Below are positions 3,009 through 45,713 of a stretch of 64,000 nt of DNA, one piece after another; within the stretch, counting starts at the first letter, position 1, and every line of letters starts with the position of its first letter. Where the stretch lies: positions 53,654-117,653 of the forward strand of contig JAKAJH010000004.1 in assembly GCA_021813905.1 (NCBI GenBank), in the 5' to 3' direction. The notes beneath the pieces are model-generated. The model worked only from the letters and a program-made list of their open reading frames with translations. It was not told the origin of the DNA and searched no databases. Position numbers and translations under genes: made by a program. Source of the stretch: Bacteroidota bacterium. GTDB taxonomy: Bacteria; Bacteroidota; Ignavibacteria; UBA10030.

Positions 3009-4415
3009 ATGACCTCGACTTCGCAAGAACATCTCACCCTGACGCCGGAATTCCGGCGTCAGCGGGTCATCAACTGGATGTCGCTTGGCGTGCTGTATGC
3101 GTTCTTCTACATGACACGCTACAATTACACCGCCGTCGCCCCGGTGCTGGCGGATATTCTCGGATGGCGCAACACGGAACTCGGCGTCTTCGAGACGATG
3201 ATGCCGCTGGTCTACGGGCTTTCCGTGGTGCTGAACGGGCCGTTTGCCGACCGGATCGGCGGCAAGCGCGCCTTTCTGTTCGGGGCCGTCGGCGTGGCGC
3301 TGATGAATCTGCTGTTCGGACTGGCGAGTTTCACGATCGTCTCGCCCGCAGTATGGGCAGGGACGGGACTCGCGCGGCACGTAGTCGTACCAGCGACGCT
3401 GTCGTCCGGGATGTCGGGCGGCATGCTGCTGACGATGATGGCGATCGTGTGGGGTATCAACGGGTACTTCCAGTCATTCGGTGCGCTGTCGATCGTCAAG
3501 GTGAATGCGCAGTGGTTCCACGTCCGCGAGCGCGGCACGTTTTCCGGAATCTTCGGCGTGCTGATCCGGATGGGGCTGCTGCTTGCGTTCCAGGGGGTAC
3601 CGCTGATCCTGCTCTTCTTCCCGTGGCAATACGCGTTCTGGATCCCCGGTGCGTTCGTCGTCGTGATGTTCCTCATCAACTACTTCTTCATGTACAATTC
3701 GCCGAAGGAGGCGGGTCTCGGCGAGTTCGACACGGGCGACGAGGTGGAAGATGACGAGAGCAAGCCGGCGTCCGTGGGATTCATCCTGCGCAAGGTGTTC
3801 GCGTCACGCGTCACCTGGATGATCGCGCTCGGCTCGATGATGATCGGCTTCGTGCGCCGCAGTGTGGTGGATGCATGGTGGCCGAAGTATTTTGTGGACT
3901 TCTACGGCGCGGACAAGTCCGGATTCGCGACGTATCTGCCGTACCTGATCGCCACCTGGGGCATTGCGCTGGCCGGTATCGCCGGCGGATTCGTGTTCGG
4001 CATTGCATCGGACCGCACCTTTGGCGGCCGACGGGCACCGGTGATCACGTTCGGATTCGTTGGAATGGCGGTGGTCCTGGCTCTCTTCGGGTTGTCGGAT
4101 ATGCTGGGATTTGGTCCCATCGCGGCCGCGTGCTGTCTCGTACTGCTCTCATTCTGCGTGAACGGCGCGCACGGGATGATCGGGGGCGCCGCGTCGATGG
4201 ATTTCGGCGGGAAGCGGGCGGCAGCGACCGCCGCCGGGATGTTCGACGGTATGCAGTACCTCGCGGGGGCGTTCGTGGGGATGGGCGTCGGCTACATCAC
4301 GACAAACTGGGGATGGGGTGCGTGGCACTGGGCACCGATCCCCTTCGCTCTCTTCGGCGCCTGGGTGATGTCCCGCTTGTGGAATGTAATGCCGCGCGGT
4401 CGATCCGCGCATTGA
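3009..4415 (+). CDS. MFS transporter, organophosphate:phosphate antiporter (GlpT/UhpC-like) family
   Basis: 12-TM-like hydrophobic profile; FYMTRYNYTAVAPV and WGINGYFQSFGALS..WFHVRERGTFSGI motifs resemble the OPA subfamily. Confidence 0.55.
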   Translation: MTSTSQEHLTLTPEFRRQRVINWMSLGVLYAFFYMTRYNYTAVAPVLADILGWRNTELGVFETMMPLVYGLSVVLNGPFADRIGGKRAFLFGAVGVALMNLLFGLASFTIVSPAVWAGTGLARHVVVPATLSSGMSGGMLLTMMAIVWGINGYFQSFGALSIVKVNAQWFHVRERGTFSGIFGVLIRMGLLLAFQGVPLILLFFPWQYAFWIPGAFVVVMFLINYFFMYNSPKEAGLGEFDTGDEVEDDESKPASVGFILRKVFASRVTWMIALGSMMIGFVRRSVVDAWWPKYFVDFYGADKSGFATYLPYLIATWGIALAGIAGGFVFGIASDRTFGGRRAPVITFGFVGMAVVLALFGLSDMLGFGPIAAACCLVLLSFCVNGAHGMIGGAASMDFGGKRAAATAAGMFDGMQYLAGAFVGMGVGYITTNWGWGAWHWAPIPFALFGAWVMSRLWNVMPRGRSAH

Positions 4416-4469
4416 AATGGATGTGGGGCGATTGGACGCTGTCCTCAACGGTATCAAACGGAGCGGGAG

Positions 4470-5015
4470 ATGATCAATCCATGGCATGATGTGAGCCCCG
4501 GCGAGCACGCACCGAAAGAATTTCAGACCATCATTGAGATCCCCTATGGGTCGAGCGTGAAGTACGAGCTCGACAAGAAGAGCGGCCTGATCAAGCTTGA
4601 CCGCGTGCTATATTCGGCGGTCTTCTATCCTGCGAATTACGGATTCATTCCGCAGACGCTGGCGGAAGATGACGATCCGCTCGACGTGCTGGTGTTCTGT
4701 CAGGAAGCGGTCGTGCCGCTGACGATCATCAACGCCCGTTGCATCGGGCTGATGACGATGATCGATTCCGGCAAGAAGGACCACAAGATCATCGCCGTGG
4801 CGATGGGGGACCCGACGTACAATTCCTATCGTGAAGCCACCGATATGCCGCCGCATCTGATGAACATGCTGCGCCGATTCTTCCAGGACTACAAGCAGCT
4901 GGAGGGCAAAGCGGTGGAGGTGGACGAGATCCAGCACGCGAACGACGCCTATCCCATCATCCAGACCGCACTGGAGCGCTACAGCCACCAGCGGCGGGCC
5001 GGGTTCAAGCACTGA
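4470..5015 (+). CDS. ppa: Inorganic pyrophosphatase (family I)
   Basis: EIPYGSSVKYELDK..DPLDVLV..DxGxxDxKIIAV signature; about 181 aa; GGGAG RBS upstream. Confidence 0.9.
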   Translation: MINPWHDVSPGEHAPKEFQTIIEIPYGSSVKYELDKKSGLIKLDRVLYSAVFYPANYGFIPQTLAEDDDPLDVLVFCQEAVVPLTIINARCIGLMTMIDSGKKDHKIIAVAMGDPTYNSYREATDMPPHLMNMLRRFFQDYKQLEGKAVEVDEIQHANDAYPIIQTALERYSHQRRAGFKH

Positions 5016-7343: not shown

Positions 7344-7472
7344 GAATATCTTCCTCAGTTTGTTGGATTTCATAAATAAGATACACAAATTTCATTGTGC
7401 CGGACAATGTTTTTCAGGATCAGACCAGCCTCCGGCGGCGATCGCATCTCTCCACTTCCGTTCGGTACGTAC

Positions 7473-9095
7473 ATGATTCGCAGATTCCTCCGCATTCTGC
7501 TCCTCAGCATTGTCGCCATCGCGTGGCTGCCGGCGCAATCCCATCCGCCGCGACTCGTTGTGTTCGTTTCCGTGGATCAGCTCAAAGGCAATGTCTTCGA
7601 TCGCTTTGACTCGCTGTTCACCGACGGCTTTCGAACGATGCGATCAGACGGCCTGCGATTCTCCCGCGCCACCCTCAACTACGCCCCCAGCGAGACCGGC
7701 CCGGGGCATGCGACCATGTCGACGGGGTGCTATCCGTGGAAACATGGCATTTGCTCCAATGACTGGATCAACACTGCGACAGAAAAGGAGATCTACTGCG
7801 TCGAGGATACAGCCGCCGAGGCACAGGAACCCGGCCACAGCATCGTCTCTCCCCGCAATCTGTTGCGGCCCGCGATCGGCGACTGGCTGAAGGCGGCTTC
7901 CCCCGCCTCGAAGGTCATCGCACTCTCCATCAAGGATCGGGCGGCAATTCTCATGGGCGGGCGGCACCCGGACCTCGCGCTGTGGTTCGACCATGATTCC
8001 GAGCACATGATCAGCAGCGACTATTATCCCGCGCCGCTTCCGGCCTGGGTCACGGCGTTCAACGCCTCGCGCTGGATGGATCATCACCTGCCGGAGGCAT
8101 GGACGCTCCTGCTCCCGGACTCTGTCTATCGTACCTTTGGTCCCGACGACATGCCCGGCGAGCGCCGGTGGGACACATGCCGGACATTCCCGCATCCGTT
8201 CATGCCGATCCAGCGGGTGGATCAGTGCATCATGAGTCCGTACGGCAACGCGATGCTGCTGGACCTCGCCCGTCAAGCTGTGGACGGCGAACGCCTGGGC
8301 CGGCGCGATACGACCGACCTCCTCTGCATCAGCCTCTCCTCAACGGACTACATCGGTCATGCTTTCGGCCCGGACAGCTGGGAGATGATCGATAACCTCG
8401 TTCGGCTGGACCGGCAGCTGGGTGACTTCCTCCGCTTTCTCACGTCACGTGTCGGACGGGAGCATTTACTGGTGGTGCTGACCGCCGATCACGGCGCGCT
8501 GCCTCTGCCGGAATACGCACAGGACATGCACACGATGCAGGCCCGCCGCATCTCCGCTGCGGACATCAACCGGCCAATTCTTGCCCTCGATAGTCTCCTG
8601 CGCGTGCGATATCACGCGACCGAGCACGTGATCCTCCAGAATGAATACGTGAACGAGCGCGTCGCCCGGAGTGCCGGCATCACACCCGAAGCGCTGGCGG
8701 AAGAAGTACGGACCGGACTGCTCCGCATCCCCGGCATTGCTGACGTGTATCTCCGCGCCGAACTCGAGTCCCGTTCAACAGACGGACGGCCCTTTCTTGA
8801 ACAGTATCGCCACGGCTTTGTCCCCGAGCGCGGCGGTGATTTCGTGATTCGCTTCTGCGAGGGTTGCCTCGTCACGAATGGCTCCACCGGCACCAGCCAC
8901 GGTTCGCCGTACTTCTACGACACGAACGTACCGATCCTCTTCTGGGGACCGCGGATGGCAGTGCACCGGGTGGATCGCGATGTGCATACCGTGGATATAG
9001 CACCGACGCTGGCCCGCATCATCGGCATCGCGCCACCGTCGGACATCGATGGTATTGCATTACCCGAAGTGCCGGCCCCGGCCGGAACGCAGTGA
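7473..9095 (+). CDS. Alkaline phosphatase-family protein (nucleotide pyrophosphatase/phosphodiesterase-type, PafA-like), secreted
   Basis: VFVSVDQLKG ... TGPGHATMSTGCYPWKHGI ... TADHGALP motifs of the type I phosphodiesterase/NPP fold. Signal peptide MIRRFLRILLLSIVAIAWLPAQS. Confidence 0.7.
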   Translation: MIRRFLRILLLSIVAIAWLPAQSHPPRLVVFVSVDQLKGNVFDRFDSLFTDGFRTMRSDGLRFSRATLNYAPSETGPGHATMSTGCYPWKHGICSNDWINTATEKEIYCVEDTAAEAQEPGHSIVSPRNLLRPAIGDWLKAASPASKVIALSIKDRAAILMGGRHPDLALWFDHDSEHMISSDYYPAPLPAWVTAFNASRWMDHHLPEAWTLLLPDSVYRTFGPDDMPGERRWDTCRTFPHPFMPIQRVDQCIMSPYGNAMLLDLARQAVDGERLGRRDTTDLLCISLSSTDYIGHAFGPDSWEMIDNLVRLDRQLGDFLRFLTSRVGREHLLVVLTADHGALPLPEYAQDMHTMQARRISAADINRPILALDSLLRVRYHATEHVILQNEYVNERVARSAGITPEALAEEVRTGLLRIPGIADVYLRAELESRSTDGRPFLEQYRHGFVPERGGDFVIRFCEGCLVTNGSTGTSHGSPYFYDTNVPILFWGPRMAVHRVDRDVHTVDIAPTLARIIGIAPPSDIDGIALPEVPAPAGTQ

Positions 9096-34987: not shown

Positions 34988-36472
34988 ATGAACGTGCTGC
35001 TCGTAAATCCCCTGGTGCCGGACACGTTCTGGAGTTTCAAGCACGCTGTTCGGTTCGTTTCAAAGAAGACCACCTTCCCACCGCTCGGCCTCCTGACGGT
35101 GGCGGCAATGTTGCCCTCCGACTGGTCGCTTCGACTCTGCGACCTCAATGTTCGGCACCTGTCGGACCGTGAGATCCGGTGGGCGGATATGGTCTTCGTG
35201 ACCGGCATGTCGATCCAGGAGACATCGGTCCGCGAAATCATCGCGCGATGCCGGTCACTCCGCCGGCCGATGGTCGCCGGAGGGCCGCTCTTCACCGCCC
35301 GGTCGGAGGAATTCCCCGACGTGGACCATCTGGTCCTGAACGAAGCGGAGCTCACCCTGCCGGCGTTTTTGGACGATCTTCGGTCCGGTCATCCGGCGCG
35401 CGTGTATCGTTCCGACGCCTGGGCGGATGTAACCGCCACTCCCGTTCCTCTGTGGCGTCTCATCGATCAGCGCCGGTACTCGAACATGAACATTCAGTAC
35501 TCGCGCGGTTGTCCCTACGACTGCGAGTTCTGCGACATCACCGTCCTCTACGGTCGCGTTCCCCGGACAAAGACCAGGGACCAGTTGCTGCGGGAATTCG
35601 ATGCGCTCTACGAAAGCGGGTGGCGGGGGGATGTGTTTCTCGTTGACGACAACTTCATCGGAAACCGGCGGAAACTGAAGTCGGAGATCCTGCCGGCCCT
35701 GATCGAATGGCGCCAACGCCGCAGGGATCCCTTCTCGCTGAACACCGAGGCATCCATCAACCTGGCGGACGACGAAGAGCTGATGAACCTGATGGTGCGC
35801 GCGGGATTCTCCGTCGTGTTCGTGGGGATCGAGTCACCGCACGAGAAGAGTCTTGAGGAATGCCGGAAGATGCCGAATCGCGGGCGCGATCTCGCCGGAT
35901 CCGTCCGCGTCCTTCAGGATCACGGTCTTCAGGTCCAGGGCGGATTCATCGTGGGATTTGACAGTGATCCCGTCTCGATCTTTGAACGCCTGATCGCGTT
36001 CATTCAGGAGACCGGTATCGTCACAGCCATGGTGGGGCTCCTGAATGCTCCCATCGGATCCCGTCTCCATCAGCGTCTGGTGAAGGAAGGCCGGTTGCTC
36101 ACGGCGATGTCGGGCGACAACACCGACTTCTCGATGAACTTTCTTCCCCGCATGAACCTCGAGACACTCGTCAGCGGCTACCGGTCCGTTCTCCAGACGA
36201 TCTACGCGCCGAAGCAGTACTACGCGCGGGTGCGTTCCTTCCTTCGGAGGTACAATCCGCCGGCGACTTTCCGTATCCGCATCCGGCGCGTCCATCTGCA
36301 GGCACTCGTGAAGTCCGCGGTCATTTTGGGAATCTTCGGTAAGGAGCGGTGGGAGTACTGGAAGCTCTTCTTCTGGTCCCTCTTCCGCCGCCCGCGCCTC
36401 TTCCCGATGGCGATCACGTTCTCCATCTACGGATTCCATTTCCGCCGCGTGGTCGAACACTTTGCGGGCTAG
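34988..36472 (+). CDS. B12-binding-domain radical SAM protein (DUF4070-type C-terminus)
   Basis: N-terminal cobalamin-binding fold; YSRGCPYDCEFCDIT CxxxCxxC cluster. Confidence 0.8.
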   Translation: MNVLLVNPLVPDTFWSFKHAVRFVSKKTTFPPLGLLTVAAMLPSDWSLRLCDLNVRHLSDREIRWADMVFVTGMSIQETSVREIIARCRSLRRPMVAGGPLFTARSEEFPDVDHLVLNEAELTLPAFLDDLRSGHPARVYRSDAWADVTATPVPLWRLIDQRRYSNMNIQYSRGCPYDCEFCDITVLYGRVPRTKTRDQLLREFDALYESGWRGDVFLVDDNFIGNRRKLKSEILPALIEWRQRRRDPFSLNTEASINLADDEELMNLMVRAGFSVVFVGIESPHEKSLEECRKMPNRGRDLAGSVRVLQDHGLQVQGGFIVGFDSDPVSIFERLIAFIQETGIVTAMVGLLNAPIGSRLHQRLVKEGRLLTAMSGDNTDFSMNFLPRMNLETLVSGYRSVLQTIYAPKQYYARVRSFLRRYNPPATFRIRIRRVHLQALVKSAVILGIFGKERWEYWKLFFWSLFRRPRLFPMAITFSIYGFHFRRVVEHFAG

Positions 36473-36593
36473 ACGCCGTCCGAGACGCATCGGTCGGAAT
36501 CATCCGTGGGTCGGCGGAGCCAGTTCCGCGTACCGATCCGACGCGGATGTCGAATCCCCTCGGCACCCGCCGGCGGTTCCGCACACGATTCCA

Positions 36594-36710
36594 TCAACGC
36601 AGCAGGAACACGCGTGACACAACGGCCAGGATGAGCGCCAGAGCCGCCAGTGAGATGAGAGCGATCACCATGCGGCGGCGGTGCTGCAGATTCTGAGGGG
36701 GAGTGTTCAT
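36594..36710 (-). CDS. 38-aa single-TM micro-protein (candidate)
   Basis: MNTPPQNLQHRRRMVIALISLAALALILAVVSRVFLLR. GGGAGG RBS 5 nt upstream, high GC3. Lies in an otherwise empty 725-bp gap. Confidence 0.25.
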   Translation of the reverse strand: MNTPPQNLQHRRRMVIALISLAALALILAVVSRVFLLR

Positions 36711-37197
36711 CGGAGCCTCCCGGCAATCAGCGCCGGAGAACAGAGCGCGTGTGCTGACGGGCGTTGACCTGCGCGTTGTGTATCAGCGACTCACAAACGC
36801 CGCACAGAAGGATCGCGTACCGCGACCCGCCGACACACCGTTGGATCTTCCACACCCATGGCACGATTTGACGACATCGCGGGCAACGGTGCGGGCGGTG
36901 TTCCACCCGGACATCGATTCCCGATGGCATTGTCCCCCGGATCCGTCCGGCATCCCGTCGCACCATCCTCGCTCGTCTCCGCGTCGTGTTTCTTCTTGGC
37001 AGCACGGTACACAACGGAACCCATCCGTTCATCCGAATTCCGATAAGCGGCGAATCCCGTCGTCCGGCGGCAAACCGACCGGCAGCACCCACCCGCAGAC
37101 ACTCCATCCGACCAGCCGCTCGTCGAGTCCTGCTGCCGCTTGGCCGGGAGGTCTTTACTCTTGCGCAAGAAAGCGTCACATTGCTGCCGGAACGGCA

Positions 37198-38286
37198 ATG
37201 AGACGATTGCGCGACATTCTGCGGGGCGACTTTCGCACGCTCGGATTCTGGCATTTTCAGATCACCGGGTGGCTGCTGTTGTACGCAGGCGACATCGTCC
37301 TGATCATTGCCCGCGGGCGATCCCTGTCCGAGGGATTGACCGAGGCCTGCGAAACGCCGGTCGCCTTCCTTCTTTCCCTGGGACTGCGCCGGATTTACAC
37401 GCGCCTGGACTACAAGAGGCTCTCCGTGGTATCCCTGATCGCCTATCTCACCGTCTGGTCGCTGATCATTACGGGGGTCTGGTACGTGTTGATCGCCGCG
37501 ATCTGGTACTTCGCGATGAGCGCACGCATCGGCCTGGCGATGTTCGATCCCGGCTATGTGTTCCGGTGGCTGAATTATCTCGCACCGCTCTGGTTCTCCT
37601 GGAGCGCGCTCTACTTCGGGATCAAGTACTGGCGGGATTGGATCGACGAGAAGGAGCGCGCCCGCATCGCCACCGCTCTCGCGCAGAAGGCCCAGCTTCA
37701 GATGCTGCGGTACCAGCTCAATCCGCATTTCCTGTTCAACGCGCTCAATTCGCTCCGCGCGCTCATCGACGAGGACAAACGCCTCGCCAAAGGGATGATC
37801 ACGGAACTATCTGAATTTCTGCGCTACTCCCTCGTTTCCCGGCGCGCCACGAGCGTCCCGCTGCGCGACGAGCTCGACGCCATCCGGCACTACCTGGCCA
37901 TCGAGAAGAAACGGTTCGAAGACAAGCTCCAGGTATCGTTCGCCGTTGATCCGAAAGCCGAGGATGTTCCGGTCCTCAGCTTCCTCATTCATCCGCTTGT
38001 GGAGAACGCGGTCAAGTACGGCATGAAGACTTCCCCGATGCCGTTGCGGCTGAAATTGGAAGCGTCCGTCAATGACGGGGGATTGACGGTGGATGTGTGG
38101 AATTCGGGCCGGTGGCTCGACGAGAGCGATGCGGCGAAGCCCGGGGCCGGAACCGGTACGGGCCTCGAGAACACACGGGCCCGATTGGCCAACGCGTATC
38201 CCGGACGACACCATGTGGACGTGATCACCGAAGGCAATGCTGTTCACGTCCGGCTCCGCATCGACGAGATCCTGACCGAGGCGTGA
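37198..38286 (+). CDS. Sensor histidine kinase, 4TM + His_kinase + HATPase (paralog A)
   Basis: LNPHFLFNALNSLRALI, LVENAVKYG, GTGLEN. The upstream in-frame region 36703-37197 is low-complexity and probably non-coding. Confidence 0.75.
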   Translation: MRRLRDILRGDFRTLGFWHFQITGWLLLYAGDIVLIIARGRSLSEGLTEACETPVAFLLSLGLRRIYTRLDYKRLSVVSLIAYLTVWSLIITGVWYVLIAAIWYFAMSARIGLAMFDPGYVFRWLNYLAPLWFSWSALYFGIKYWRDWIDEKERARIATALAQKAQLQMLRYQLNPHFLFNALNSLRALIDEDKRLAKGMITELSEFLRYSLVSRRATSVPLRDELDAIRHYLAIEKKRFEDKLQVSFAVDPKAEDVPVLSFLIHPLVENAVKYGMKTSPMPLRLKLEASVNDGGLTVDVWNSGRWLDESDAAKPGAGTGTGLENTRARLANAYPGRHHVDVITEGNAVHVRLRIDEILTEA

Positions 38287-38289
38287 CGC

Positions 38290-39456
38290 ATGCGAGTACG
38301 TCTGACTCATCTTCGGGACTGGAGCTTCTGGCACTACCAGATTGCCGGGTGGCTGGTGTTTTGCGCCGGCAACCTTGCCGTCAATCTTCACGCGATGGGA
38401 TGGAATTCACGCGTCGTCGCCAGCCTTTGCCTTCAGGTGGTCGCGGCCGTCTCCCTCACACTCGGCCTGCGGCGTTACTATCGCCGGTTGCCGCATCGCG
38501 AGCTCGCACTGCCGGGCATCGTGTTCCGCATCGTGTTCTGTTCGTTCCTCGCGACGGTGGTGCTGCACGCGGCATTTCTCGGCATCGAGACGCTCTTCTT
38601 CGGAGCGAAATTCCTCGCGAAGGCCACTGCACATATCGCCTTCACGCTGCAGTGGATCGCGATCCTGTTCCCGGTGATGGTGGGCTGGAGCGCACTGTAT
38701 TTCGGCATCAAGTTCTATCGGGAATGGACCACCGAGCGCATCCGCGTTGAACAGGCCACCGAAGCGGCTCAGCGTGCCCAGTTACAGGCGCTTCGGTACC
38801 AGTTGAATCCGCATTTCCTGTTCAACACGCTGAACTCCGTGCGCGCCCTCGTGGACGAAGACAGCCGCCTGGCCAAGCAGATGGTCACCGAACTGGCGGA
38901 GTTCCTCCGCTATTCCCTGGTCAGCCGGAACAAGACCGAGCTCACGCTCAACGACGAACTGAATGCGATCCGACTGTATCTTTCCATCGAGCAGCGACGT
39001 TATGAGGACAAGCTCTCGGTGGCGTTCGACGTCGATCCCGATGCCGGCGACGTGCCGATGCCGAGCTTTCTGATCCATCCCATCGTCCAGAATGCCGTCA
39101 AGCACGGCCTCCGGACGAGCCCGATGCCGCTCCAGATCCGGATATCTGCGCACCGGACCGACACCAGGCTTCGGATCGAGGTCGCCAATTCGGGTTCGTG
39201 GATCGAGCCCGTGGAGGAAGAGCAGGACGCCGAGCTGGAGTTCGGTGCGGGACTCGAAAATGTTCGGGCCCGGTTGCAGGAAACATATTCCGGGCAACAT
39301 CACTTCGCGACGGAAGAACAGGACGGATTCGTCCACGCGGTTCTGGAAATACCGTTGCCGACGGGATCTCCGGGAGAAGCCGCTCCGGCGGTGACCTCCG
39401 GCCTGCTGTCGGGCTGGAACCGTCGACGCGCGCATCCGGAAAAGGTACCTTCATGA
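38290..39456 (+). CDS. Sensor histidine kinase, 4TM + His_kinase + HATPase (paralog B)
   Basis: Same motifs as paralog A; the two proteins are collinear. Start is 3 nt after the stop of paralog A. Confidence 0.8.
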   Translation: MRVRLTHLRDWSFWHYQIAGWLVFCAGNLAVNLHAMGWNSRVVASLCLQVVAAVSLTLGLRRYYRRLPHRELALPGIVFRIVFCSFLATVVLHAAFLGIETLFFGAKFLAKATAHIAFTLQWIAILFPVMVGWSALYFGIKFYREWTTERIRVEQATEAAQRAQLQALRYQLNPHFLFNTLNSVRALVDEDSRLAKQMVTELAEFLRYSLVSRNKTELTLNDELNAIRLYLSIEQRRYEDKLSVAFDVDPDAGDVPMPSFLIHPIVQNAVKHGLRTSPMPLQIRISAHRTDTRLRIEVANSGSWIEPVEEEQDAELEFGAGLENVRARLQETYSGQHHFATEEQDGFVHAVLEIPLPTGSPGEAAPAVTSGLLSGWNRRRAHPEKVPS

Positions 39457-40178
39457 AGAAGAAGCTTCGGGCTCTGATCGTAGACGACGAACGGCTCGCA
39501 CGCAAGGATCTGCGCACGCTGCTGATGGACGTGCCGACCGTCGAGGTCGCCGGTGAAGCGGACAGTGTTTCGTCTGCGGTCGCCATGATCGCGGAGATCG
39601 ACCCCGATCTGATCTTTCTGGACATCCAGATGCCGGGAGAATCGGGATTCGATCTGCTCGAGAGGACGGATCTTCGTGCCCGCGTTATCTTCGTGACGGC
39701 ATTTGACGAATACGCCATCCGCGCGTTTGAAGTCGATGCGGTGGACTATCTGCTGAAACCGGTCAGTCCGCAGCGGCTGGCGGCGGCCATTGAGCGGCTC
39801 GACCGGAAGACCGCCCCGCCGAACGGCAGCCGCCGCACGCTCTCCTTCGAGGATACGCTGTTCCTCTCCATCAATAATCACCTGAAATTCGTAAAGGTCA
39901 GCACGATCCAGTGCATCCAAGCCGCGGCGGATTATTCGGAGATCATGCTGTCTGACGGAAAGCGCGGTCTGGTTCAAAAATCGATGGCGGAGTGGGAGCA
40001 GCGGCTTCCCGCCGCACAGTTCTGCCGCATCCACCGCTCGACGATCATCAATCTGCAGGCCGTCGGCCGCGTGGAAGAGTGGTTCGGGGATTCGTATCAC
40101 GTCTATCTGGCGGGCGTGGAATCCCCGCTGGTCATGAGCCGCCGCTACGCCGTCCGGCTCAAAGAACGCCTCAGCTGA
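39453..40178 (+). CDS. LytTR-family response regulator 1
   Basis: LIVDDERLAR...LIFLDIQMP...YLLKP...IHRSTIINL; the ATGA overlaps the HK-B stop. Confidence 0.85.
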   Translation: MKKKLRALIVDDERLARKDLRTLLMDVPTVEVAGEADSVSSAVAMIAEIDPDLIFLDIQMPGESGFDLLERTDLRARVIFVTAFDEYAIRAFEVDAVDYLLKPVSPQRLAAAIERLDRKTAPPNGSRRTLSFEDTLFLSINNHLKFVKVSTIQCIQAAADYSEIMLSDGKRGLVQKSMAEWEQRLPAAQFCRIHRSTIINLQAVGRVEEWFGDSYHVYLAGVESPLVMSRRYAVRLKERLS

Positions 40179-40246
40179 ATTTGGGCCGTTGTTCCGCAGT
40201 AACTTCCCGCCACGGGATTTCGTATGCCGGAAGTAGTCCACAACCC

Positions 40247-41044
40247 ATGACGTCGTCCTCCCACCATCTGCGCATTCTCATCGCTGACGACGAGCGATTG
40301 GCCCGCACGAGCCTGCGCCGCGCGATCGACGAGCTCTCGGATGTTTCCGTCGTATCGGAATGCGACAGCGGACGCGAGGCCGAGCAGGCCATCCGCACAC
40401 TCCAGCCAGACGTTGCGTTTCTTGACGTGGATATGCCCGATCGGAACGGTCTCGACGTGGTCCGCGGCCTCGGTCCGGAACACGCCACCAAGATCATCTT
40501 CGTCACCGCGTATGAGGAGTATGCCCTGGAGGCGTTCCAGGTCCATGCGTTCGATTATGTGCTCAAACCGATCGATGGCGATCGTGTTCGACTTGCCGCG
40601 GAGCGTGCCCGCGAGCAGATTGTGCTCGAGAAGCACGGGGACGGACACGCTGTGCCCGACCCGGAGCTCTCGACGGTCCGGAGCGACGCCACGCAGTTGC
40701 ATCCCCGTTATCTCGACCGTCTCACCGTCCAGGCCGGCGAACGACTCACACTGGTCGATGTTGCGGATGTGGATTGGGTGGAAGCGTGGGGAGACTATGT
40801 GCGCATCCATTTGCACGGCCGGACGTTCACGATCCGCGAGAAGATCAGCGATCTCGAACGCCAGCTCGATCCCGGACGGTTTGCCCGCGTACACCGCTCT
40901 ACCATCGTACAGATTGCGCGGATCAAGGACCTGGTCCCGCTACTGCACGGCGACTATGAACTGACCCTCGCCGATAACACGCTGCTGCGTCTCAGCCGCA
41001 CGTATCGGCACCGCCTTTCCGAGCTGCTTCAGCATCATCTGTAA
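40247..41044 (+). CDS. LytTR-family response regulator 2 (orphan)
   Basis: ILIADDERLAR...AFLDVDMP...YVLKP...VHRSTIVQI. Confidence 0.85.
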   Translation: MTSSSHHLRILIADDERLARTSLRRAIDELSDVSVVSECDSGREAEQAIRTLQPDVAFLDVDMPDRNGLDVVRGLGPEHATKIIFVTAYEEYALEAFQVHAFDYVLKPIDGDRVRLAAERAREQIVLEKHGDGHAVPDPELSTVRSDATQLHPRYLDRLTVQAGERLTLVDVADVDWVEAWGDYVRIHLHGRTFTIREKISDLERQLDPGRFARVHRSTIVQIARIKDLVPLLHGDYELTLADNTLLRLSRTYRHRLSELLQHHL

Positions 41045-41211
41045 TCCACCGTTTCGCCTCCGCAGACCGTATTCGCTTCGTGTCCGTCCGCTCTGACCGT
41101 CCGCCGGACCGGCTCATCGTATTCCTGCAACCTTCCATCCCCCGGGCGCGTCTTTCGGGATAGAGACACCGGGAACCAATCATCACTCACTACTCGGTAC
41201 AGGAGGTCGCA

Positions 41212-41682
41212 ATGAAGACTCTGATGCTGTTCATGGTGCTCGCGGTGACTGTCGCCGCCGCGCAGCCGGCCGGATCCTCCGAGTCGGTGCTCCCCCCCAA
41301 CGTCAACAAAGCCATTGTGGAAGAGAACCTGCTGATCGGGCTTGCGTCGGGCAATCTCGGATTGCAGCGCAGCGCGGCGCTGATGCTCGGCAAGATCAGG
41401 TCCGACCGGGCAGTGATTCCCCTCATGGCCGTTCTCCACAACAGCGACCAGGAAAGCCTGCGGATCGCCGCGGCCTACGCCCTCTGTCGCATCGGTGACG
41501 CTCGCGGGACATTCGCCGTCCGCCGGGCTGTCAAGTTCGACGAATGCTGCCGGGTTCAGAATACCTGTGCCTGGTATTACGAAACCATGGTCAGCCCCGG
41601 CACGTTTGCCTTCGTCGGTATCAACACCGCGCCGGTGGACATCGCCGCCATTGCCGAACCGATCCTGGAAGCCGCTCCCTGA
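41212..41682 (+). CDS. Secreted HEAT-repeat (PBS-lyase-like) protein
   Basis: Signal peptide MKTLMLFMVLAVTVAAAQ; repeated LGxxxxxRAVxPLxxxL HEAT_2-like units. Confidence 0.55.
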   Translation: MKTLMLFMVLAVTVAAAQPAGSSESVLPPNVNKAIVEENLLIGLASGNLGLQRSAALMLGKIRSDRAVIPLMAVLHNSDQESLRIAAAYALCRIGDARGTFAVRRAVKFDECCRVQNTCAWYYETMVSPGTFAFVGINTAPVDIAAIAEPILEAAP

Positions 41683-41799
41683 CGAGACCCGATGCCTGCG
41701 CCGCGGCGGCATCGCAGCGCAGGTGCGAAACTCCTGGTCCTGCGTCACGATTTGCGAACATCGCGGCCGCCTACGGGCGGCCGCGGCATATCCGGCACA

Positions 41800-42531
41800 A
41801 TGATGACACCAACTCCGATTCTCCATGCCGTGATCGTCGACGACGAGCGGCTCGCGCGGGCAAGTCTTCGGTCCCTGCTGGCGGATCACCCGGATGTCGC
41901 GGTCGTCGGAGAAGCCGACACGGTTCGCAGCGCCCGGCGGCTGATTCTCGATCACCGGCCGGACGTCGCGTTCCTTGACATCTGCCTGGCGGGAGAAAGC
42001 AGCTTCGACGCTATGACAGAACTGTCTGCGTCGGTCCGGGTTGTGTTCGTCACGGGATACGCGGAATACGCGACCCGGGCGTTTCGCGTCGGCGCCATCG
42101 ACTACCTGCTGAAGCCCGTCGATCCGGCGCACCTGACAGAGGCCCTGGACCGCATCCGGCGACTTGTGGGGCGCGAGCCGGAAGACCCGCCACTGGACGC
42201 CGAGGATACGATCTTTCTGCGTTTGGGTGGGCGGTACCAGTTCGTGCGCGTGCGGGCCATCCGGTGCATCACGGCAGACGGTCCATACTCCCGAGTCGCG
42301 ATGGACGACGGACGCAAAGGGATCGCTTCGCCAGCGCTGAAGGAATGGGAAGAACGGCTGCCGGGCCGGCTGTTTGTACGAGTGCACCGCTCCGCGCTCG
42401 TCAACCTGGAGCACGTGGACCGCGTCGAGCCGAACGGCGATCACTCGTACTTGCTGCACATGAAGGGCGGCTGTGAGCCGTTGCCCATGAGTCACCGGTG
42501 CTTCACGCGGATCCGGACGCTGATGGGATGA
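41800..42531 (+). CDS. LytTR-family response regulator 3 (orphan)
   Basis: VIVDDERLAR...AFLDICLAGESS...YLLKP...VHRSALVNL. Confidence 0.8.
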   Translation: MMTPTPILHAVIVDDERLARASLRSLLADHPDVAVVGEADTVRSARRLILDHRPDVAFLDICLAGESSFDAMTELSASVRVVFVTGYAEYATRAFRVGAIDYLLKPVDPAHLTEALDRIRRLVGREPEDPPLDAEDTIFLRLGGRYQFVRVRAIRCITADGPYSRVAMDDGRKGIASPALKEWEERLPGRLFVRVHRSALVNLEHVDRVEPNGDHSYLLHMKGGCEPLPMSHRCFTRIRTLMG

Positions 42532-42557: not shown

Positions 42558-42776
42558 CGTTCGTACGACAAACGACCACGTTCATTCAAAACCGTTCGGC
42601 CGGACCGCCCTCCGGTCGTATCTTAAACCATCAGCAGGGTGCGGTCCTGAATGAACGAGGATGCTCTGCTGCCAAACTTGACGCGTCTCTCACAGGTCAC
42701 CTCCTTCTCCCCTGTTCCGCGTCAAGCGAGATTCACCGGCAGCAGAGATCCTCGTTTCGTTCCCGATTCGTTCCCG
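42558..42776 (+). promoter_or_regulatory. Cluster of (A/C)CGTTC direct repeats in the susC upstream/leader region (candidate LytTR-regulator sites)
   Basis: CGTTC at 42558, 42579, 42594, 42758 and 42769 (the last two within the tandem TTCGTTCCCG-N1-TTCGTTCCCG); spacings of 21, 15 and 11 nt. Confidence 0.25.
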
Positions 42777-42818
42777 GCTCGCATCGCCGATCGCTCACTC
42801 ACTACAGGAGGCCTGACC

Positions 42819-45713
42819 GTGAAAAGACCAACCATGTTCTCGCTGCTGCTGTGCGCATTGCTCTGCGCACATTGCATTCTGGTTGCGCAGACGACGGTCC
42901 ACGGCCGGGTCACGGACGCCAGATCCGGCGCCGGACTGCCCGGCGTGGCCGTGCACATACAATCGCTGGGTGTTGGCACGTACACCAACGCCGACGGGGA
43001 GTATGAATTCGTCGTCCCGGCTGAGAAGGTTCGTCGGGACGCCGTGATCCTCACCGCGAAGCTGATGGGGTATAAAGAGAAGACCCAGCGGATCATTCTC
43101 ACGGCGGGTCCGATTTCAGCAGACTTCGCGCTCCTGGAGGATGTCTTCCAGAGCGACGAGGTCGTCGTAACCGGCATTGCCTCAAAGACAGAGAAGTCCG
43201 TTGCGGAGGTTGCCGTCGCCCGCATCGACGCGGCCGGACTTCAGGATCTGAGCGCGTACGCCGGCGTCAACCAGCTCGTGGACGGGAAGATCCCCGGCGT
43301 TCAAATGACGACGGCGTCCGGGAACATCGGATCCGGATGGCGGTTCTTCGTCCGCGGCGGTGGCGGACTGAACGGGAACGGCCAACCTGTCATTTACGTC
43401 GATGGCACGCGTATCGAAAACGACGAGGTCGGCTCGACCTGGGGCGTGGGCGGACAGGCGATCAGCACACTCGCCAATCTGAACACGAACGACATCGAGA
43501 AGATCGAATTCCTGAAAGGGCCGGCGGCGGCGTCAATGTACGGCGCGAACGGTTCCAACGGGGTCATGCTGATCACCACGAAAGCCGGCGCACTCGCACA
43601 GACTCCCGGCGGCATGAACGTAAACTACAACTTCACATATGGCTGGAACGAACAGCTGACGCCGTACAGCAAGGATGAGTACCTCAACGCCGACACGGCC
43701 AATGCCATGTTCCGCAAGGGACTCATCCGCGCTCACTATCTGAGCCTGGCCGGCGGAAACAACACGCTGCGCTATTTCACGTCGTTTGAAAGCCGGCGTG
43801 AAGACGGCCACTTTCCCCTCACGTGGGGAGACCGGAATACCGTCCGCCTGAACCTGACGGCAGTGCCGGCACAGAATGTCTCGGTGAAACTCAATGCAGG
43901 GTACGCGAAGAACCGCATGAATGTCCCCAATCAGGATAACTCCGCCTGGGGTATTCTCGGCAACACGCTGCTCGTCGCGAATCCGTGGTTCTTCGTCCCG
44001 AAGAATGATATCACCCGACTGGTGGATGTGGTTGACGGTACGCAGTTCATCGGCGGTGCGGCGATGACGTACTCACCGGTGGCCGATCTCGAGCTGAAAG
44101 GCGGCGTCGGGATCGACAACAGCACATGGCGGCAGGACGACATTGCGCCGTTCGGCGGCCAGTTCGGCAGCGTGACACGCGGAGCCACGAACATCTACGA
44201 CCGTCTGAACCGGCAGATCACATATGATTTCGGCGCCGCGTATGCCTGGTCGCCGTTCGACAATCTGTCGATCCGCTCCATCGCCGGCGGTCAGTTCTTC
44301 GACCGACGCTTCAACAGCATCGAGGTGAACGCCGAGGAATATTCGACGCCGCTGATCACGGATCTCGGATCGGCCGGAAAGATCACGGGATACGGCGAGA
44401 CGTTCCGGAACACGCGGGACGGCGGTCTCTACACGGAACACTCGGCCGGATATCTCGATCAGTACTTCCTGACGCTCGGCGTACGGCAGGACTTCGCCAG
44501 CGTCATCGGCAAGTCGGCGCCGTCGATCGTCTATCCGAAGGCAAGCGCCGCATGGAGGCTGGACAGGTACGAGTTCTTCCCGTCCGACGTTGTCCAACTG
44601 CTCAAATTGCGCGCCGCATACGGCGAGAGCGGTGTGCTGCCCCGGCTTCTCGACGGTGCCAGCGTCTACTATACCGCCCTCGTCTCGGCGTACGGGGCGG
44701 GGGGTGTCCCGACCGTGTGGGGCAATCCCGCCATCAAGCCGGAACGCGTGCGCGAAGTGGAAGCGGGCATCGACGCCGAGGTCGCCAACGCGGTCTCACT
44801 CGAATTCACAGGCTACACCCAGAAGGCGACCAACTCCATCGTGGATATGCCGGTGGCGCCGTCGCTGGGACTCTCCACGACCCGGCCGTTCAACATCGGC
44901 GAAGTGGACCTCTGGGGATTCGAGTCGATGGTGCAGGTGACACCGCTGCGCTCGGACGACTACGACCTGCGCATCGGTCTTATCTGGAACTTCCAGCGGA
45001 ACGAGGTGAAGAGCATCGGCGGTCGGGGTGCCATCACCTCCGACAATAATGTGATCATGGAAGGCAAGCCGAAATATGAGTTCCTGGCGTACACCTCCAC
45101 GGCGGCGTTCGATTCCGCCGGCGTGTATGCGGGTGCCGTGCCGTCCGCAGACAAAGTCGATCTCGGCAATCCGATCCCGAAGTACACCGGATCGGTCACG
45201 GTCGACTTCCGCTTCCTGAAGAACTTCACGTTCTACGCGTTCGGGGAGTGTGGACTCGATATGAAGCGGTTCAACTATACGCGCCAGTTCTCGATGCTGA
45301 TGGGCGGCAACGCCGAGCGCATCCGGATGCGTGCGCAGCTCGGCTTCGCACCGTCGTCCTCGGTGACACCGCTGACGCCGGGCACGCCCGAGTATCGCGC
45401 CGTGGCGGAGAAGTACGGCCGCCTGAATCCCAACTTCGACGGGAATTTCATCGAAGACGCCGACTACTTCGTCATTCGTGAGGTAAGCCTGAGCTACAAC
45501 TTTCGCGATGCGCTCAACGCCCTCAGCCCGTTCTCGGTACTCAAAGGACTGACGGTGGGTGTGTCCGTGCGGAACTTGTGGCGCACGACGAAGTACTCCG
45601 GGGTCGACGTGGAAACAAACTACGCCGGAAGCCGGACCGTGACAGTGGGAGAGGAATTCCTGACACTTGAAACCCCGCGGACCTGGAATTTCTGGGTCAA
45701 AATGGGACTGTAA
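42819..45713 (+). CDS. SusC/RagA-family TonB-dependent outer-membrane transporter
   Basis: GTG start preceded by AGGAGG; signal peptide; carboxypeptidase-regulatory-like N domain (TTVHGRVTDARSGAGLPGV); TonB-box region; 22-strand barrel length; C-terminal ...NFWVKMGL. Confidence 0.85.
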   Translation: MKRPTMFSLLLCALLCAHCILVAQTTVHGRVTDARSGAGLPGVAVHIQSLGVGTYTNADGEYEFVVPAEKVRRDAVILTAKLMGYKEKTQRIILTAGPISADFALLEDVFQSDEVVVTGIASKTEKSVAEVAVARIDAAGLQDLSAYAGVNQLVDGKIPGVQMTTASGNIGSGWRFFVRGGGGLNGNGQPVIYVDGTRIENDEVGSTWGVGGQAISTLANLNTNDIEKIEFLKGPAAASMYGANGSNGVMLITTKAGALAQTPGGMNVNYNFTYGWNEQLTPYSKDEYLNADTANAMFRKGLIRAHYLSLAGGNNTLRYFTSFESRREDGHFPLTWGDRNTVRLNLTAVPAQNVSVKLNAGYAKNRMNVPNQDNSAWGILGNTLLVANPWFFVPKNDITRLVDVVDGTQFIGGAAMTYSPVADLELKGGVGIDNSTWRQDDIAPFGGQFGSVTRGATNIYDRLNRQITYDFGAAYAWSPFDNLSIRSIAGGQFFDRRFNSIEVNAEEYSTPLITDLGSAGKITGYGETFRNTRDGGLYTEHSAGYLDQYFLTLGVRQDFASVIGKSAPSIVYPKASAAWRLDRYEFFPSDVVQLLKLRAAYGESGVLPRLLDGASVYYTALVSAYGAGGVPTVWGNPAIKPERVREVEAGIDAEVANAVSLEFTGYTQKATNSIVDMPVAPSLGLSTTRPFNIGEVDLWGFESMVQVTPLRSDDYDLRIGLIWNFQRNEVKSIGGRGAITSDNNVIMEGKPKYEFLAYTSTAAFDSAGVYAGAVPSADKVDLGNPIPKYTGSVTVDFRFLKNFTFYAFGECGLDMKRFNYTRQFSMLMGGNAERIRMRAQLGFAPSSSVTPLTPGTPEYRAVAEKYGRLNPNFDGNFIEDADYFVIREVSLSYNFRDALNALSPFSVLKGLTVGVSVRNLWRTTKYSGVDVETNYAGSRTVTVGEEFLTLETPRTWNFWVKMGL

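Follow-up and report, generated by a model that had tools for sequence, protein, structure and literature searches.

The 64,000-nucleotide (nt) stretch analysed here, hereafter the window (Bacteroidota bacterium, GCA_021813905.1, contig JAKAJH010000004.1, positions 53,654 to 117,653), contains at 36473-37197 a gap larger than any other between the public gene calls of its contig (~726 nt, against mostly 3-270 nt elsewhere). This gap lies between a gene for a B12-binding radical SAM (rSAM)/DUF4070 enzyme of 494 amino acids (aa) (34988..36472, plus strand), identified by Pfam and convergent to the genes discussed below, and two tandem paralogous LytS-type histidine kinase (HK) genes (37198-38286, 38290-39456, plus strand), also identified by Pfam, which lead a divergent operon. 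From left to right it comprises: 121 nt of convergent intergenic DNA without coding signal, from the rSAM stop codon to that of a small open reading frame (micro-ORF) (36473..36593); the micro-ORF itself (36594..36710, minus strand), predicted to encode a 38-aa single-pass membrane micro-protein (MNTPPQNLQHRRRMVIALISLAALALILAVVSRVFLLR); a Shine-Dalgarno sequence, GGGAGG (36716..36721, minus strand), read within a 16-nt spacer 3' of the stop codon of the preceding cistron; that cistron (36727..36966, minus strand), a gene for a small predicted zinc-ribbon protein; and a 231-nt divergent control region (36967..37197) shared with the kinase operon, carrying LytTR-like 9-mers and showing no coding signal. 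The zinc-ribbon gene is thus the first cistron and the micro-ORF the second. Both are very probably real genes under purifying selection, and the gap is not gene-free as had been proposed: a second conserved minus-strand gene lies there, besides a genuine micro-ORF. The noncoding remainder (121 nt and 231 nt) is of ordinary convergent and divergent intergenic length.

No long credible ORF was found in 36473-37197, as the sequence-only reading had stated. Indeed, the upstream in-frame extension of the first kinase (36703-37197) has a codon score of -0.20 per codon and flat G+C contents at the three codon positions (GC1/2/3), and is therefore considered non-coding. A kinase start at 37198 agrees with the homologues, which are 355-370 aa long and cover 95-100% of the 362-aa product; a 90%-identical homologue is likewise 362 aa long. 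The window sequence is also present as ENA ERZ27237587 k141_611540 and NCBI GCA_027400455.1 DAHYWQ010000084, and the gap is identical in these copies. A repeat or mobile-element origin of the gap was rejected, the gap being unique in the window and without nucleotide match in the fetched loci. A decayed HEAT_2 gene, sought because relatives have a HEAT_2 gene and ~260 nt upstream of the kinase, was rejected too, tblastn returning noise only.

The micro-ORF extends from an ATG at 36710-36708 to a stop codon at 36594-36596, with GGGAGG 5 nt upstream of the ATG. Its codon score (0.32 per codon) and its G+C content at third positions (GC3 0.76) match those of real genes in the window, so that the ribosome-binding site (RBS) and coding-like GC3 reported from the sequence alone were confirmed, and it is called as a gene in the NCBI and Logan copies of the contig. 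Residues 14-32 of the product are hydrophobic (mean Kyte-Doolittle hydropathy 2.86) and an RRR motif precedes this helix. In the closest available relative, L092 (rSAM 87% identical), the gene calls include a minus-strand ORF of 38 aa at the same place (1953-2069; MDTSPPDLQHRRRMVIALVLLAAMALLLAVVTRVLLLT), which is identical at 27 of the 38 residues, with the same length and no indels. Codon-position differences between the two orthologues are 9/3/19, with a ratio of nonsynonymous to synonymous substitution rates (dN/dS) of 0.19 (p=0.0018). The conservation at the amino-acid level that the sequence-only reading had proposed to check is hence found in L092, and its suggestion of a small membrane peptide is strengthened by this comparison and by counterparts in distant lineages. 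As judged from its sequence, the micro-ORF is a genuine small membrane protein gene.

The zinc-ribbon gene can be read from two start codons. ATG 36966 gives a product of 79 aa, is aligned with the ATG of the L092 orthologue and has GGAG 8 nt upstream; ATG 36930 gives 67 aa (MPSGIDVRVEHRPHRCPRCRQIVPWVWKIQRCVGGSRYAILLCGVCESLIHNAQ...), matches the N-terminus of the family described below and has GGGGGA just 2 nt upstream. The L092 orthologue (2086-2325, 79 aa) is 53% identical over its whole length and 73% identical in the core, without indels, and shows codon-position differences of 23/24/45 and a dN/dS of 0.20 (p=0.0065). A hidden Markov model (HMM) built from metagenome members only ranks the ORF first among the 1275 stop-to-stop ORFs of the window (E=4.9e-4). 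Public gene calls missed the gene in L001-L003, L092, L085 and L141; in L141, the calls include a 61-aa plus-strand ORF (4285-4470) that runs antisense to the micro-ORF and to the 3' part of the zinc-ribbon gene, overlapping both. An AlphaFold2 (AF2) model of the protein (predicted local distance difference test, pLDDT, 79) is all-beta with four strands, and agrees with a zinc-ribbon fold in which two CxxC knuckles would hold four cysteines on a beta-hairpin scaffold; zinc binding is predicted.

Taken together, the two small ORFs and their spacer, which is also 16 nt in L092, align gap-free with L092 over 373 nt. The third-position excess of the two genes combined is significant (p=5e-5), and the rSAM gene, used as a control in the same comparison, gives codon-position differences of 51/36/208, a dN/dS of 0.077 and a dS of ~1.06. 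In both small genes, same-strand shifted frames have dN/dS ratios >1; the lowest antisense frame ratio is 0.23 for the micro-ORF and 0.45 for the zinc-ribbon gene, the remaining antisense frames ranging from 0.60 to 8.7. Two stop-free plus-strand frames run across the small-gene region of L092, and are the usual antisense shadow of GC-rich DNA.

The zinc-ribbon protein belongs to a widespread, uncatalogued family. Weak homologues were detected by tblastn in the kinase-fetched loci L089 and L090, and an uncalled copy in L085 was recognised by eye; the spacing of Cys and Trp is the same in all these early copies. An earlier scan, based on a two-sequence alignment, used over-specific patterns and gave no confirmed match. 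JGI metagenome contigs were then scanned with a hand-built, degenerate back-translated pattern, C-x2-C-x3-[IV]-x-W-[AV]-W-x-[IV]-x13-C-x2-C, which yielded 45 loci: 35 of them encode a clearly homologous protein of 59-87 aa (~30 distinct sequences), the rest being Cys-rich junk. Loci reached through the kinases, L085, L089 and L141, gave further uncalled copies (E=3e-22 for L141). The family consensus is M[NS]S[RQ]VEK.K.[ED]L.C.[RH]C.[KR]RI.WAW[VLM]I.Y.S[FY]....[LF]VY[VL]CS[EQ]CG.VIKV.N followed by a variable tail, and in 21 aligned members C16, C19, C43, C46 and the two Trp never vary. Models of Pfam, NCBIfam and PADLOC all remain below threshold for the family: the best E-values of its members (6e-5 to 1e-3) are all against generic zinc-finger models, the window protein reaches at best 14.4 bits against a cut-off of 24.5 bits, and PDB sequence profiles give nothing significant (best E 0.042). 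In a crude neighbour-joining (NJ) tree, the window and L092 proteins form a divergent long branch. Generic zinc-ribbon proteins (Elf1/TFIIS/TFIIB-type, Pfam zinc-ribbon domains of unknown function), among which zf_UBZ, DUF2039, Zn_Ribbon_TF and Elf1 give the weak matches, share with the family two CxxC knuckles parted by a beta hairpin; however, the present family is set apart by an invariant W-x-W past the first knuckle, with a fixed spacing of 15 residues to the second.

When the micro-protein itself was used as query, a library of 1.84 billion representatives returned only self and one spurious repeat match, a 5.8-billion cluster search self only, and Pfam and NCBIfam nothing beyond noise; such a search fails on a query so short and hydrophobic. 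Positional counterparts of 37-56 aa were nevertheless found behind the zinc-ribbon gene in L085, L089, L098, L104, L122, L124, L132, L137 and L141. They start ~0-75 nt past the zinc-ribbon stop codon (overlapping it in L132), often directly behind GGGGGA, and the window and metagenome micro-proteins are alike in length, position and topology and have a loose A-[VL]-x-[SCT] motif in common. The micro-ORF is present in 10 of the 10 zinc-ribbon loci in which kinases are visible (the window, L085, L089, L098, L104, L111, L122, L130, L132 and L141) and on contigs too short to include kinases (L092, L120, L124, L137), and is absent from all ~9 loci whose upstream sequence spans at least 2.3 kb without a kinase.

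The operon facing the small genes has the composition of a LytS/LytTR two-component system. Its kinases match Pfam His_kinase (PF06580) and, weakly, HATPase_c, and are 47% identical to each other; its regulators carry Response_reg and LytTR domains. Tandem kinases followed by a LytTR regulator also occur in L085, L089, L098, L104, L122 and L141. In loci with at least ~650 nt upstream, a gene for a HEAT_2 protein of ~150 aa with a signal peptide is divergent from the zinc-ribbon gene, with the exceptions of L118 and of the L106/L110 lineage; the intergenic region between the two measures ~210-650 nt, and 270-470 nt in most cases. In a subset of loci, HEAT_2 is followed by HK-HK-LytTR, and the kinases (46-60% identity) and the regulator (66-68% identity) are orthologous to those of the window. 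In L141 and the window, the zinc-ribbon gene faces the first kinase directly. A sodium/glutamate symporter gene (Glt_symporter, PF03616) and then a polysaccharide deacetylase gene often come next in the HEAT_2 operon; L085, L090, L096, L116 and L126 show the order HEAT_2, optional HK-HK-LytTR, PF03616 symporter and polysaccharide deacetylase. In kinase-free loci, the zinc-ribbon gene is also convergent with the gene of an orphan protein that consists of a receiver only.

The divergent control region of the window contains three LytTR-like 9-mers (at most one mismatch to CCG[CT]TCGTC, plus strand) at 36969-36977, 37025-37033 and 37116-37124 (CCGCTCGTC). The sequence CCGTTCGTC is an experimentally defined site of AlgR, a LytTR-family regulator (PMC4787818). 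Across loci, the motif occurs at 7.2 per kb in the kinase-linked divergent regions, a density to be read in light of the shortness of the motif and the relatedness of the loci, and at 1.07 per kb in the kinase-free divergent regions and 1.3 per kb in the flanking background. AlgR-type 9-mers (CCGTTCGTC/CCGCTCGTC) are ~6-fold enriched in the intergenic regions of the window, L098, L104, L122 and L132; one subgroup has two copies 42 bp apart, and in an alignable subgroup the 9-mers lie in conserved blocks facing each transcription unit. This enrichment of putative AlgR-type boxes in kinase-linked regions is suggestive only. No sigma-70-like promoter was found in 36967-37197. Furthermore, a block, GTTCATCCGAATTCCGAT, is common to the window and L092, where it is part of a 22-bp near-palindrome (GTTCATCCGAATTCCGATGAAC; ~2379-2400) located ~100 nt upstream of the zinc-ribbon gene; in the window (37028-37049) the left half of this near-palindrome is kept and the right half is degenerate. 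It may represent an operator. The inverted repeat GCGTCTG-N5-CAGACGC is conserved in L085, L104, L122, L132 and L137, where it closely precedes the HEAT_2 start codon, and may be a hairpin in the 5' untranslated region (UTR) or an operator.

From these data, the small-gene pair belongs in all likelihood to the two-component/HEAT_2 locus and not to the rSAM gene. The segment 36594-36966 would probably, though with clearly less assurance, be a minus-strand bicistronic accessory module of the HEAT_2/LytS/LytTR locus. In brief, its first cistron would encode a cytoplasmic four-cysteine zinc-ribbon protein of 67-79 aa, from an undescribed family, and its second cistron, placed after the RBS-bearing spacer, a micro-protein with a basic N-terminus and one transmembrane helix; this operon would be transcribed divergently from the HK-HK-LytTR (and HEAT_2) operon starting at 37198. 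The tight coupling of the cistrons suggests that the two proteins act together: they could be made together by translational coupling and form a membrane-associated unit accessory to the sensor system, in which the micro-protein could anchor the zinc-ribbon protein at the membrane or contact the transmembrane domains of the kinases, as MgrB does on PhoQ. The LytTR regulator of the operon could read the shared 231-nt control region through the AlgR-type boxes, which would create a feedback. Indeed, the restriction of the micro-protein to kinase-bearing loci and the regulator-like boxes suggest a membrane accessory under feedback control; this specific mechanism is put forward only tentatively. 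A somewhat more speculative extension is that the pair represents an undescribed class of accessories for tandem LytS-type kinases, in which the micro-protein would bridge the kinase membrane domains to a zinc-ribbon effector under LytTR feedback, and might also bridge the periplasmic HEAT_2 protein to this cytoplasmic effector.

Several observations weigh against an accessory module of this kind. Concerning the genes, the dN/dS values of the window copies come from a single informative relative, L092, and population polymorphisms provide nothing more, the other assemblies of the contig being identical in the gap; the zinc-ribbon start codon is ambiguous (36966 or 36930), and this ORF, short and Arg/Cys-rich, has a non-coding-like codon score of -0.08 per codon. 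Concerning the micro-protein, an HMM of its metagenome counterparts did not detect it in the window and the libraries searched returned no homologue, and therefore its equivalence to these counterparts is positional and architectural, not statistical. Concerning the link with the kinases, in the crude NJ tree, apart from the window/L092 branch, the zinc-ribbon genes with a micro-ORF fall into one clade, so that one or two evolutionary events, or even a single historical one, may account for the presence of micro-ORF and kinases at the same loci; moreover, the pair is missing from two kinase operons approached through the kinases (L139/L140 and the P0030 contig), and is therefore not obligatory for these kinases. 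As for the boxes, all three 9-mers of the window point towards the kinase, the motif carries little information, and 5 of the 8 kinase-linked intergenic regions are mutually alignable, hence non-independent. Finally, the function of the pair is entirely inferred.

Among the other explanations, a partnership between the micro-ORF and the adjacent rSAM, as RiPP-like substrate or partner peptide, had been proposed in the sequence-only reading; in its favour, the two genes adjoin (121 nt apart in the window, adjoining in L092 too) and the substrate of DUF4070-class enzymes is unknown. The enzyme does have the architecture of the B12-binding/DUF4070 class, confirming the earlier annotation: Pfam matches to B12-binding (PF02310, 1.3e-10), Radical_SAM (PF04055, 1.2e-12) and DUF4070 (PF13282, 3.6e-40) place an N-terminal B12 domain, an rSAM core and a C-terminal DUF4070 in 34988-36472. 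However, its NCBIfam matches are sub-threshold and to B12-rSAM methyltransferase-type families only, no SPASM or RRE domain was matched in Pfam, and the NCBIfam models of RiPP rSAM enzymes remain far below their cut-offs. Precursor-maturase pairs of ribosomally synthesised and post-translationally modified peptides (RiPPs) resemble the locus in having a small ORF next to an rSAM gene, but they are normally co-oriented, conserved and equipped with a SPASM/twitch or RRE domain, whereas here the genes are convergent and the micro-peptide is a transmembrane helix without leader or core features. Moreover, the pairing lacks conservation: the micro-ORF, the kinase and TatT are all missing from the vicinity of the rSAM homologues (56-69% identity) in 80 loci, an rSAM gene is absent from the 35 other zinc-ribbon loci tested, and only the window and L092 combine rSAM and small-gene pair. 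Synteny anchored on the rSAM is uninformative for the gap, its neighbourhood not being conserved in these 80 loci. L093, whose rSAM is 77% identical, retains TRAP-TatT-rSAM without the small-gene/kinase block, which appears to have been deleted there. The partnership is contradicted by this synteny and can practically be set aside, the rSAM being a positional neighbour only. The reading of the micro-ORF as a type I-like hydrophobic toxin or stand-alone membrane-damaging peptide, with an antisense or regulatory RNA also encoded in the gap, is improbable, if less so. The length of 38 aa, the single hydrophobic helix with basic flanks, of Hok/TisB/Ldr-type resemblance, and the orphan status of the peptide in protein databases would fit, but "toxin-like", as first proposed, is allowed by size alone and nothing specific favours it. 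Indeed, the micro-ORF comes second in a conserved operon, after a 16-nt spacer, keeps a syntenic chromosomal position across lineages under purifying selection, and is not multicopy in the window, and PADLOC defence models gave no match. The regulatory RNA suggested earlier was not recovered either: even with E up to 10 allowed, Rfam matched nothing in the gap, and no family, tRNAs and riboswitches included, reached the gathering score across the 64-kb window (1-64000). The leftover intergenic DNA has no unusual RNA fold (z-scores of -0.56 and +0.44 for 36473-36593, and of -1.32 and -2.0), and no terminator-like site was found in 36473-36593, the sole one lying inside the rSAM gene. That segment aligns poorly with its 82-nt counterpart in L092.

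That both small ORFs are chance ORFs in GC-rich noncoding DNA, the gap being a 5' UTR or promoter of the kinase, is as hard to credit as the rSAM partnership. GC-rich DNA does give many open frames, as the two stop-free plus-strand frames of L092 illustrate, and the zinc-ribbon ORF scores poorly by codon use and was skipped by most gene callers; but this view is already contradicted by the comparative data, namely a dN/dS of ~0.2 in exactly these frames, the lack of indels across 373 nt at a dS of ~1, the conserved start, stop and spacer, and the ~30 distinct homologues with invariant Cys and Trp. The close rival of the accessory module is of another kind: the zinc-ribbon protein could be a small transcription factor for the divergent HEAT_2/kinase operon, and the micro-protein its membrane tether or sequestering partner, a logic akin to that of anti-sigma factors or of HdrM/BrsM. 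The fixed feature of the family is indeed its divergent pairing with one operon, a classic regulator-target arrangement, and the family also occurs without kinases or micro-protein and therefore would have a core role independent of them. The near-palindrome that the window and L092 have conserved ~100 nt ahead of the zinc-ribbon gene, and the basic C-terminal tails of many members, point the same way. Conversely, the protein has no recognisable DNA-binding domain and its Pfam matches are generic zinc-finger noise below threshold, and a transcription factor with its tether is considered unlikely, though far less so than the toxin.

If the accessory module is considered in relation to known systems, the nearest functional analogy for a micro-protein that would contact and modulate kinases is MgrB. 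MgrB is regulated by PhoP and inhibits PhoQ (PMC2789325). With MgrB (47 aa), SafA and MzrA, the micro-protein shares its very small size, its single predicted membrane pass and a genetic tie to a membrane histidine kinase system; its promoter might in addition hold target sites for the response-regulator family of its own system, which would create a feedback. However, it has no sequence similarity to these three proteins (Pfam, NCBIfam, protein collections), it lacks the conserved periplasmic cysteines of MgrB, it is co-operonic with a zinc-ribbon protein, and it adjoins LytS-type PF06580 kinases and not PhoQ. The kinases and regulators resemble AlgZ/AlgR in their PF06580 and Response_reg+LytTR domains, and the putative boxes resemble the AlgR site CCGTTCGTC. 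BtsS/BtsR and YpdA/YpdB are LytS/LytTR systems that control transporters, and the Glt_symporter gene found directly after the regulator in relatives of the window recalls this arrangement. Unlike in those systems, the kinases here form a tandem paralogous pair, and we know of no accessory zinc-ribbon, micro-protein or HEAT_2 component described for LytS/LytTR systems. Type I toxin peptides (Hok, TisB, Ldr, Ibs) are alike in length, hydrophobic helix and poor annotation, but the micro-ORF differs from them in having a partner within its operon and in keeping synteny with a signalling locus, in lacking an Rfam antisense RNA family, and in not being multicopy.

The analysis has brought to light a new, uncatalogued small-protein pair whose general kind is familiar. 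It provides a concrete case of the small-protein blind spot of metagenomes, in which seemingly empty intergenic DNA hides two conserved small genes, one of which, the zinc-ribbon gene, was skipped by standard gene callers in most of the public copies examined. It also defines a family, recognisable by a sharp motif (C-x2-C-x3-[IV]-x-W-[AV]-W ... C-x2-C) and by its fixed partner in the genome, nominates a candidate small membrane accessory for LytS/LytTR signalling, whose inputs are poorly understood, and removes a tempting but wrong lead, the pairing of a peptide with an rSAM.

Other features of the locus concern the neighbourhood of the pair. Downstream of the tandem kinases, public gene calls and Pfam identify three LytTR response regulators on the plus strand (39453-40178, 40247-41044 and 41800-42531) and, within the kinase operon, a signal-peptide HEAT_2 protein (41212-41682, plus strand). 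With two LytS-type kinases, three LytTR regulators and one HEAT_2 protein, the cluster 37198-42531 is unusually rich in regulators, and it is followed by a TonB-dependent receptor gene (42651-45713). The rSAM homologues (L004-L083) are found in Bacteroidota, Ignavibacteriota, Nitrospirota, Chloroflexota, Firmicutes, Planctomycetota and one Woesearchaeota metagenome-assembled genome. In L093 (ENA ERZ27247960 k141_5884350), decayed fragments are present downstream of the rSAM gene (7349-8114), namely a 110-aa ORF fusing the N-terminus of a receiver to the C-terminus of a LytTR domain, and a HEAT_2 tail (..CAWYYET).

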